A DNA stretch of 64,000 bases from Amoebidium appalachense (lineage: Eukaryota; Protista; Ichthyosporea), in the NCBI GenBank assembly GCA_963693365.1, contig CAVNZM010000016.1:6307029-6371028 (forward strand), given 5' to 3'. Position numbers and translations under genes: made by a program. Numbering within the stretch: the first letter of the stretch is position 1; every line of letters starts with the position of its first letter. The notes under the pieces are model-generated. The model was not told the origin of the DNA. It ran no database searches and saw nothing but the letters and a program-made list of their open reading frames with translations. Positions 53,601 through 56,600 of the stretch are shown in pieces.

Positions 53601-56600
53601 ATTCCTAACCTGCCAACAAACCAATCAGATTCAGAGAAAACACATACCTCAAGCACCTTAAGGTATCCCAATGCCTTTGCCTTTGCCTTGACACCCCCCT
53701 CATCCTTTTCAAATCCCCACACGCTCTCATCCCCATCCACGCACGTGTACATGATATGTTCCAGAAATTTCCATTGCACGTGCAAGGGCAGGCCCCCTTC
53801 CCATTCGTCAGAATTCGCCTCAATTTCGTCCGTTCCCGCAAGAATTTTGCGTTCTTTGGCTGTTACGGAGAGGGCTTGGGTAATGGGCAAGTGTCCGTGA
53901 TGATCCTGTGGTGGGGGTGGTGGTGGTGGTGGGGGGAGGGGGGGGGGGGGTGGTTAGGATGATGTGTGTGTTTTGGGGTGTGTCTTGGTGCGTGTGGTTT
54001 TGGTGGGTCGGTGGGGTTGATTGTGTGGGTTCGAGGGGCGGGAGAGTGGGAGGAAGGGGGAGAGGGGCGGGGGGAAGGGGGGGGGAGGGATAAAGTGGTC
54101 GCCGTGGCCGTGGTGGTGGTTGTGTGGATGTGTGCTCTCGTGTGTGAATGGGCGGGAGGGGGGGGGGAGGGACCGGGGTGGGGGGGTGGGGGGGGGCGAC
54201 GGGAGGGTGTGGCTCGCGTATGTGTGTTTAGTGTGTGTGGGGGGGGGGGGGGAGAGAGGGGGTGAGGGGGGGGGGGGGGGGGGGGGGGGGGGAGAAAGGG
54301 GTCAAAGCATACCACAATATTTTCCAACACCACAGTTGCGTCAGTCACATAGGTGACATGGATGTGGGCCAAAATCTTAGGGTCATCTTTCTCTGTGTGT
54401 GTAGCACGAGGAAGATGGTGAGGAGATGTGGAGGGTGTGTGTGTGTGTGTGTGTGTGTGTGTGTGTGTGTGTGTGTGTGTGCGCGCGCGCGCGTGTGTGC
54501 GTTTGTGTGTGTGTGTGTGTACGTGCGTGCATGGATGTGTGCACACGTGGACACGCGCGGGTATGCGTGTGTGTACTTGCATGTCTGTGAGCGTGTGTGT
54601 GTGTTTGCGTGTGTGCGTGCCTGTGTGGGTGTGTATGTGCGTGTGTGTGTGCGCAGGCGAGAGAAAGAGAGAAAGAATGCCGGATACGGAGAGACACAGC
54701 GAGAGGATTCTCAGAAACACAAACTTGCAAGTGGCAGTGCTGTGTGCGTGCGTGGGCGTGTCTGTGACTGGTTGCAGCGGGTGGGGGGGGGGGGGGGAGG
54801 GGGGGGGGGGGGGAGGATCCGGAAGAGAGGGCGTGGGGGGGAGGGGCGGGTTGAATGCTCCATAAATTCCGAAGTGCACATAAACAACGCACAACACGAT
54901 GCGGAGTGCAAACCACACATATAGAGTATGCATAATGGGGGGGGGGGGGGGGGGGGGGGGGGGGGGGAGGCAGCGAGTTAAATAAGAGGACCTCCGGGTC
55001 AAATTGTGTACATGTGGGTGAGAAGGAACTGGGTATATTTGTGTGGCTGCGCGCGCGTGTGCGTGTGTGTTTGTGTGTGCTTTGTGTATCTGTGTCTCTG
55101 TGTCTCTGTGCGTGCATGTGTGCATGTTTCTTTGCATCTACGTATGTGCATGTGTGTGTCTCCCTCTCTGTGTATGTGTATCTGTAGCACCTACCTGTTC
55201 TAGTGACTTCTGGGACCTTGTGCATGTTTCTTTACCTAAAATGTGTGTGTGTGTGTGTGGGTGGGTGTGTGTGTGTGTGTGTGTGTGTGTGTTTGTGTGT
55301 GTTGTGTGTGTTGTGTGTGTGTGTGCATGTTTCTTTACGTATACGTAAGTGTATGTGTGTGTGTCTCCATCTCTGTGTATGTGTATTTGTAGCACCTACT
55401 GTTCTAGTGACTTCTGCGACCTTGTGCATGTTTCTTTACCTAAATGTGTGTGTGTGTGTGTGTGTGTGTGTGTGTGCGTGTGTGTGCGTGCGTGCGTGCG
55501 TGCGTGCGTGCGTGCGTGCGTGCGTGCGTGCGTGCGTGCGTGCGTGCGTGCGTGCGTGCGTGCGTGCGTGTGTGTGTGTGTGTGTGTGTGTGTGTGTGTG
55601 TTGTGTGTGTGTGTGTGCATGTTTCTTTACGCATACGTAGGTGTATGTGTGTGTGTCTCCCTCTCTGTGTATGTGTATTTGTAGCACCCACTGTTCTAGT
55701 GACTTCTGGGACCTTGTGCATGTTTCTTTACCTATATATATGTGTGTGTGTGTGTGTGTGTGTGTGTGTGTGTGTGTGTGTGTGTGTGTGTGTGTGTGTG
55801 TGTGTGTGTGTGTGTGCATGTTTCTTTACGTATATGTGCGCCCGTGTGTCTGTGTGTCTCCCTCTCTGCATATGTGTGTTTGCAGCATCTACCTGTTCTA
55901 GTGACTTCTGGAACCTTCAACATCTCCTCCAACAGCACCAGCACCACCACCGGGGATGGGCGCACTTTTCTGCTGAGGTTGCCCCACACTAGACGCAGAC
56001 TACTGTCACGGTGCCCTTGCCCACGGTACATCTCAATCATGCTGTGGGAGGGGGAGGGGGGGAGGGGGGGGAGGGGGGAAAGGTGAGAGGGGGAGGGGAG
56101 GGGGAGGGGCGAGGGTGGGAGGGTGGGGAGGAGGAGGGTGGGAGGAGGGGAGGTGGAGAGGGGGAGAGTGAGGAGTGGGTGGAAGAAAGGGATGGAGAGT
56201 AAGTGGGAGGCGATAGAGGGGAAGGGGTGAGGGAGGGGGTGGGAGGGGGTTAGTGGGGGGGGGGGGGGGGGGGGGGAGGGGGGGGGGGGGGGTTGAATGC
56301 GGAACACGGTACGAAGTACACATACACGACGAGAAGCATGGTGCAGGACACATGCAAAGGCAAACATTCAAGTATGCAACATCAGCCATGTGCACAGTAT
56401 GCGTCATAAGCAGAGCCCATCCTCAGGGAGGGCCCAAGTCATCAATTGCGTCTGAGTTTCGACCCCTTAGCCCGCGTATATACGACGCTCCAACTCAGAC
56501 AGCAGCATCAACTGAACTTGGGCGGGTCAACCCGTCTTGATCAAAGACGAGCAGGGTTGCTTATGCAAGCAAGGTGAGCAAAACGGTGAAGATGTGTGTG

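Follow-up and report, generated by a model that had tools for sequence, protein, structure and literature searches.

The window analysed here is a 64,000-nucleotide stretch of the genome of the ichthyosporean Amoebidium appalachense (GenBank assembly GCA_963693365.1, contig CAVNZM010000016.1, positions 6,307,029 to 6,371,028 of the forward strand), and positions below are counted from its first letter. It contains part of a Penelope-like element (PLE), a retroelement, together with two diverged copies of a structured RNA motif, which a sequence-only reading had singled out for their hammerhead-like core bases. Both copies lie on the minus strand at the sites given by that reading and are 80% identical over a 179-nt alignment. 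We propose, with a probability of about 0.68, that both repeats are the tails of Chlamys-type PLEs that carry a hammerhead core within a doubly pseudoknotted fold, and that the RNA would cleave itself in cis after a GUU triplet.

The coding portion of the element is a 5'-truncated open reading frame (ORF) at 31785..34199 on the minus strand that begins just past a poly-C tract. Its CPC, MDKAS, GIPMGTNCA and YIDD motifs correspond to the CxC, DK(A), GIPMG and YIDD signatures of a PLE-type reverse transcriptase (RT). The ORF shares 99.9% identity with residues 135-938 of the protein P0001; it lacks residues 1-134 but reads through without interruption from residue 135 up to the stop codon. P0001, whose source name resembles that of a transcript assembly, contains a GIY-YIG match in the region that is absent from the window ORF (residues 27-79, E 3e-4, narrowly short of the Pfam cut-off), and this domain contains neither the CxxC linker nor the CCHH motif, the zinc motifs of Naiad elements. 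The Pfam RT model did not match the window ORF, and PDB and Pfam searches for the RT ORF were without result. Chlamys elements have been described as having an N-terminal GIY-YIG domain without CCHH, the CxC and DK motifs, (C)n target sites, 5' truncation and partial tandem arrangements (Craig et al. 2021, PMC8557442). As judged by these motif, domain and insertion features, the window ORF, and probably the tails, are those of a Chlamys-type element.

Copy 2 of the motif (29750..29904, minus strand) lies 1.9 kb downstream of the end of the RT ORF on the same strand, with low-complexity tracts in between, inside the presumed 3' untranslated region (UTR; 29663..31784, minus strand, from the RT stop to the end of the poly-C). 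Its orientation and distance suggest that it is linked to the Chlamys-type ORF. At 31200-30820 (minus strand) the presumed UTR also holds two diverged, similar and non-repetitive segments separated by low-complexity tracts, which resemble the tandem repeats reported in Chlamys tails; a large structured RNA in the UTR upstream of copy 2 was considered and found unsupported (z -0.39, with z -1.99 for the region upstream of copy 1). Copy 1 represents a second family with no ORF nearby. Alignments within the window place it in a non-coding unit of ~445 bp with poly-C at its end (56291..56737, minus strand), which, by analogy with the elements of Craig et al. 2021, is probably a non-autonomous or 5'-truncated Chlamys-type element. 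Four additional copies, all 5'-truncated and on the minus strand, are present in the window: a tandem copy of the 3' end at 56745..56888, which is 98% identical and forms a partial tandem resembling a pseudo-long terminal repeat (pLTR); a fragment of the copy 1 family at 24191..24346 whose core is altered (A9 to G); a diverged fragment at 20321..20417 with a decayed core; and a fragment at 54836..54936 that covers the region downstream of the core. The last three are embedded in poly-C. In total, six 3' ends across the window continue into C tracts; the partial tandem at 56888-56291 includes copy 1.

The bases shared by copies 1 and 2 constitute the full hammerhead core set, as CUGAGGA, GAAA and GUU are invariant between them, and GGUCGAAAC is present only at these two sites in the window. 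In the standard hammerhead numbering, copy 1 contains G10.1 at 56528, U16.1 at 56493, H17 at 56492, G12 at 56460, C3 at 56426 and A9 at 56420, while the equivalent positions in copy 2 are 29867, 29833, 29832, 29804, 29770 and 29764. Three stems abut the core, with R10.1-Y11.1 and A15.1-U16.1 pairs in place; in copies 1 and 2, respectively, stem I comprises 4 and 3 bp, stem II 5 and 6 bp, and stem III 8 and 12 bp past the A-U pair. The helices named in the sequence-only reading, namely its long stem (stem III), basal stem and apical hairpins, can all form in both copies. The same is true of the loop-to-base pairing of GACC with GGUC, in which a C-G pair is swapped for U-A at pair 5 between the copies, and of a second proposed pairing, GGAG/CUCC in copy 1 and GGG/CCC in copy 2. 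That reading also noted a conserved 2-nt bulge in the basal stem, which is better described as a portion of a kink turn (K-turn)-like motif with a 3-nt bulge. The competing hairpin across CUGAGGA that it pointed out is real as well, at -13.0 and -10.4 kcal/mol.

From 5' to 3' on the minus strand, copy 1 begins with the 5' strand of a helix that we call Pa (56554..56566, pairing with 56418-56405), followed by a hairpin, Pb (56530..56552), the 5' strand of stem II (piece T, 56524..56528, with its pseudoknot partner at 56465-56461) and the 5' arm of a basal rod, Pc (56508..56522). Next come the cleavage block S (56488..56501), which comprises the stem III 3' strand, U16.1, H17 and the stem I 5' strand, a linker hairpin (56475..56484), and block G (56449..56465), which comprises the stem II 3' strand, GAAA at 56460-56457 and the stem III 5' strand. 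The second arm of Pc then leads into half of block C (piece c, 56420..56430), which consists of the stem I 3' strand and CUGAGGA with no stem II after it, and the motif ends with the Pa 3' strand (56405..56418). In copy 2, Pa lies at 29904-29892, Pb at 29890-29868 and the stem II 5' strand at 29867-29862. The linker hairpins of copy 1 and copy 2 (the latter at ~29825-29816, minus strand) are unlike in sequence, but each is a perfect 10-nt palindrome, and pairing between two RNAs is therefore also possible. Stems I and II are pseudoknots that join the apical loop to either flank of the rod base. Pa, which closes the entire motif, and Pb, which lies just ahead of the stem II 5' strand, are conserved helices beside the core that add to those named earlier.

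This arrangement departs from canonical hammerheads in the two respects that the sequence-only reading had recognized. The block order is S-G-C, which is incompatible with hammerhead types I-III, as these have the circular orders CGS, GSC or SCG and no pseudoknots. The motif has the C-S-G cyclic order of non-circular permutations, with two pseudoknots. In addition, CUGAGGA is not contiguous with stem II, whose 5' strand is located upstream; instead it continues, 1 nt past A9, into Pa (0-2 nt across the motifs described below). The link between A9 and G10.1, which in known hammerheads is direct or passes through 1-2 nt, is thus opened by an insert of two helices, Pa and Pb. The rods of both copies share a further pattern in a common register, with adjacent bases that differ: along the 5' arm, UCA is followed by a 3-nt bulge whose last base is U and then by GA, opposite GA-UGA on the 3' arm. 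We take this to be the K-turn consensus, which comprises a canonical (C) helix, a 3-nt bulge, tandem G-A/A-G pairs and a non-canonical (NC) helix; by that consensus, both copies are K-turns in sequence, and the kinked geometry is a prediction. In copy 1, L1-L3 are at 56512-56510, G1b is at 56509 and the partner GA is at 56443-56442, while the bulge of copy 2 is at 29851-29849. This K-turn-like motif likely provides the bend in both window copies.

Single-sequence folding by itself is weak support for the fold. Compared with shuffled sequences, copy 1 yields z -2.97 and copy 2 z -0.80, with pseudoknots unscored, and because of these values the two copies by themselves are insufficient proof. 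We therefore consider the motif in related RT loci, which were collected with an alignment of 50 of 120 listed relatives as the query and comprise 80 metagenome stretches, the best among 546, along with 27 loci in prokaryotic assemblies. The Naiad/Chlamys RT relatives found within prokaryotic genome records (L081-L107) are probably contaminating eukaryotic host DNA. Viral contigs contained no RT relative and no match to the motif pattern of the window. A descriptor that takes the four pieces T, S, G and c in any order, with a score cut-off of 30, was applied to the 76 loci that have at least 150 nt past the RT match, and 200 dinucleotide shuffles and the antisense strand served as controls. 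The order T-S-G-c scores at least 30 in 14 of the 76 3' flanks and in none of the 76 antisense flanks, as compared to a shuffle mean of 0.035 (maximum 2). The orders of hammerhead types I-III were found in 0 of the 76 3' flanks, and five other block orders score once or twice each. The motif extends over seven RT lineages at no more than 42% identity (two families, L068, L071, L092, L098 and the window), which include both Naiad-type and Chlamys-type endonucleases. In L071 it is located 5' of the ORF. In L098 the order is c-T-S-G in both the 5' and the 3' flank, and between A9 and G10.1 Pa forms a closed hairpin adjacent to Pb, so this form is a circular permutation of the split fold. Three members of the larger family, which has seven loci, hold incomplete motifs: in L015 and L023 similarity 3' of the RT ends 44 nt past the predicted cut, and L002 fails the descriptor.

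Pairing across these loci favors the upstream strand of stem II. CUGAnGA, GAAA and NUH are present in all 12 representative motifs, as expected of strings that belonged to the locus search, whereas G10.1-C11.1 and G16.2-C15.2, neither of which the search demanded, are each found in 11 of the 12. Several pair types are used at the start of stems I-III among the 12 representatives. Five related rows of the five-member family were aligned by sequence: pairing in the pseudoknotted stem II is complete (100%), and 5 of its 6 pairs have changed on both sides, stem I contains one compensatory pair, and overall pairing is 92%, as compared to 36-47% when the partners are slid. The upstream strand provides 5-6 bp of stem II in 18 of 18 motifs. 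Related variants of copy 2 are also present in four contig-only sequencing runs that were compared with it; a contig of run X12 that covers window positions 29743-29819 represents a third variant of the family, in which both the linker and the one visible strand of stem I (3') differ.

Neither copy has a meaningful match to a known Rfam family. The best relevant hit in the window is a partial match to Hammerhead_1 (14 bits, E=4), none reaches gathering level, and 10 related loci also gave no meaningful match. Non-circular permutations of the hammerhead, types SGC and CSG, have already been published (Eckert et al. 2023, PMC10085705), and CSG-1 and CSG-2 cleaved in vitro at 0.004-0.03 per min. 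The window motif shares with these types the C-S-G cyclic order, the non-circular arrangement and the two pseudoknots, and its rod Pc, as in validated CSG, connects the 5' strand of stem II to the 3' strand of stem I. However, its block C is split by Pa and Pb, with the RNA ends inside that insert, whereas block C is uninterrupted in the published forms; we therefore file the motif under neither SGC nor CSG. It further differs in residing in the tails of eukaryotic retroelements, while those described by Eckert et al. come from metatranscriptomes or anonymous soil DNA, and in having a K-turn-like bend; cleavage is a prediction here. Type I hammerheads in the pLTRs of Penelope/Poseidon, Neptune, Hydra and endonuclease-minus PLEs (PMC8557442, PMC11167929, PMC6765202) also place a core in the PLE 3' UTR or pLTR and occur in partial tandems. 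Those are three-way junctions of circular order that are often minimal and dimeric, in contrast to the long, doubly pseudoknotted window motif, which Rfam models and canonical descriptors miss. The non-circular permutation is thus already known, and new within the literature searched are the split CUGAnGA block and the retroelement setting. That literature, taken without figures or subscription papers, contains no description of this fold in retroelements, and none appears in the parts covered of bioRxiv 10.64898/2026.07.22.740005, PMC13725137, PMC10162972, PMC3088659, PMC8216279 and PMC6765202.

Craig et al. 2021 (PMC8557442) report that canonical hammerheads are absent from Naiad and most Chlamys elements, and that 18 Naiads contain 'HHR_core' or 'half_core' strings, which match no descriptor and are left unexplained. 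The Chlamys traits are shared by the element described here, to which we assign a complete permuted fold, where the sections covered of that study list core strings only. Part of the tails in its supplement, whose sheet lists 54 Naiad families, was inspected by eye and without statistics. The split order is visible in 10 Naiad consensus records, among which, by file order, are one from a ctenophore, three from Acropora and two from Octopus; both Octopus tails also display a K-turn by eye. Six further records, which by file order include three Nippostrongylus, contain complete and plain contiguous type CSG with an enclosing I-II helix as in CSG-1 and CSG-2, and the circularly permuted form of L098 is recognizable by eye in the Naiad tails as well. 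Among the few places of the supplement that were covered, no Chlamys record was a fit. Near parts 17-19 of the supplement, several Naiad tails with CUGACGA after C runs and an upstream GCAGAAAC fit neither form by eye and are possibly further variants. Matches to 'tcgaaa' in the supplement are mostly coding sequence, and an 11-nt match between the Eckert CSG-1 oligonucleotide and a Naiad tail was dropped for its wrong orientation.

From these comparisons we favor the first option of the sequence-only reading, a permuted or split hammerhead in a PLE, which is supported by the core bases, the pairings, their order and the retroelement context. A new ribozyme class, its second option, is not needed because the entire hammerhead core is present. 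It had also held that an active core would need a sharp bend or a dimer; the bend is retained, and the dimer is not, as the pairings do not require one. One RNA molecule would likely fold into the motif and be cut after GUU, at 56492/56491 in copy 1 and at 29832/29831 in copy 2. Pa and Pb may be stacked on the outside of the core, replacing the A9-G10.1 bond; rod Pc would be the counterpart of the I-II helix of validated type CSG hammerheads, and the K-turn-like motif would fold Pc back so that the rod base reaches the apical loop. The chemistry would be the usual acid-base catalysis by G12 and G8 that is established for hammerheads. Cleavage in the window copies may be slow, because H17 is U, stem I has only 3-4 bp and free folds are ~10 kcal/mol better, or it may be aided by the element's own protein. 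Its role, the least certain part of the proposal, may be to cut tandem or read-through pLTR transcripts and release element RNA, in line with the standing hypothesis of tandem-transcript cleavage for PLE hammerheads (PMC8557442).

Several observations weigh against this proposal. Within the window, both copies have U at H17, a poorer cleavage site, and free folding is favored over the nested part of the model by the margin just given, again with pseudoknots unscored. The pairing of Pa is not individually significant in either copy (26/300 and 51/300 shuffles reach the observed value), and in only 5 of 11 motifs do 11 or fewer of 300 shuffles reach it. The K-turn was found in 2 of 17 motifs scanned, which are the window copies, and in 0 of the 15 locus motifs, where short rods or large bulges take its place; a loose pattern arises in 30-44% of shuffles, and the low rates for the strict pattern, kept in register with the basal helix (0.7% and 0.9%), come from a post hoc test. 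In the survey, 12 of the 14 matches fall in two families, of seven loci at 83-91% RT identity and five loci at 68-89%, and are non-independent. Matches in 3' flanks number 15/76 overall, 13/32 with at least 1000 nt and 6/19 with at least 1800 nt, which leaves many misses, and a relaxed descriptor scan of the loci without a match revealed no convincing extra motif. The descriptor and cut-off were fixed after examples had been seen, so the stem I-III pairing percentages are partly a product of construction, and in the seven-locus family the stem II 5' strand was reassigned by hand; this family has a U10.1-A11.1 pair and no clear Pb. Among the hammerheads shown to be active in the literature searched, none carries a long insert behind A9, and inserts at this site are limited to 1-2 nt according to Eckert et al. 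2023. Lastly, the 5' ends of the truncated copies were rejected as marks of the cut: 0 of 4 start at the predicted site, and three (56888, 24346 and 20417) start at the rod base, 55-56 nt downstream of it (55 nt for the tandem copy), which may reflect RT stalling or poly-C joining.

The alternative that survives best, although we consider it unlikely, is that the RNA folds as described and does not cut unaided, either because it needs a dimer or the element RT, or because it is mainly an RT-binding or RNA-stabilizing descendant of a hammerhead. This would explain why, in the window copies, stem I is weak, H17 is U and other folds compete, and why three truncated copies start at the rod base instead of at the cut; the palindromic linker hairpins could favor dimers. 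Moreover, in vitro the canonical PLE hammerhead PAc needed protein to cleave, and insertion did not depend on this hammerhead (PMC11167929). Yet the catalytic bases and NUH are kept over the seven lineages while the stems turn over, every pairing can form in cis, and the related CSG and SGC forms cut themselves during transcription with no need of protein (PMC10085705). It is quite improbable that the motif is an ordinary type SGC hammerhead whose stem II is formed by the strand that follows CUGAGGA after 2 inserted nt, with the upstream pairing in an accessory role. Copy 1 permits 6 bp (3 G-U) in this register, which is the first choice of the descriptor, but copy 2 permits only 4 bp (2 G-U) and 15 of 16 locus motifs have at most 1 bp, whereas the upstream strand pairs in every motif and covaries. 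More improbable still, decayed remnants or a chance assembly of core motifs could explain the core changes in truncated copies, the failure of copy 2 to fold better than shuffles and the many related loci without a match, but not the strand-specific excess of 14 matches over 0.035 expected, the retention of core and pairings in both full copies at 80% identity, or the intact upstream ORF.

If the split hammerhead reading is true, it would solve a stated puzzle: Naiad/Chlamys elements are dominant in many genomes of invertebrates and algae, yet the hammerhead of other PLEs seems to be missing from them. Non-circularly permuted hammerheads, so far represented by environmental sequence and one weak bacterial candidate, would gain a place among eukaryotic genomes, and with it many natural variants. 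Interruption of the CUGAnGA-stem II block, which Eckert et al. 2023 took to be impossible, would be shown to occur, and hammerhead counts by present descriptors would therefore be too low. The window contributes a Chlamys-type case whose rod has a K-turn-like bend; from the related loci comes the c-T-S-G form, which links split and contiguous CSG. A bolder version, which we offer only tentatively and think doubtful, is that a four-strand hammerhead broken between A9 and G10.1 is active and ancestral to Naiad/Chlamys and interconverts with plain CSG by shifting the RNA ends, and that its K-turn-dependent folding here lets a host L7Ae-family protein or the element RT switch cleavage on.

Elsewhere in the window, an apparently intact Ty3/gypsy chromodomain long terminal repeat (LTR) retrotransposon occupies 2157-11961 on the plus strand, with identical 641-bp LTRs and with gag and pol in separate frames. 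Host exons of a basic helix-loop-helix protein and an ankyrin-repeat protein lie at 27250-26400 and 45600-48000, both on the minus strand, amid very long poly-C/G and CA tracts.

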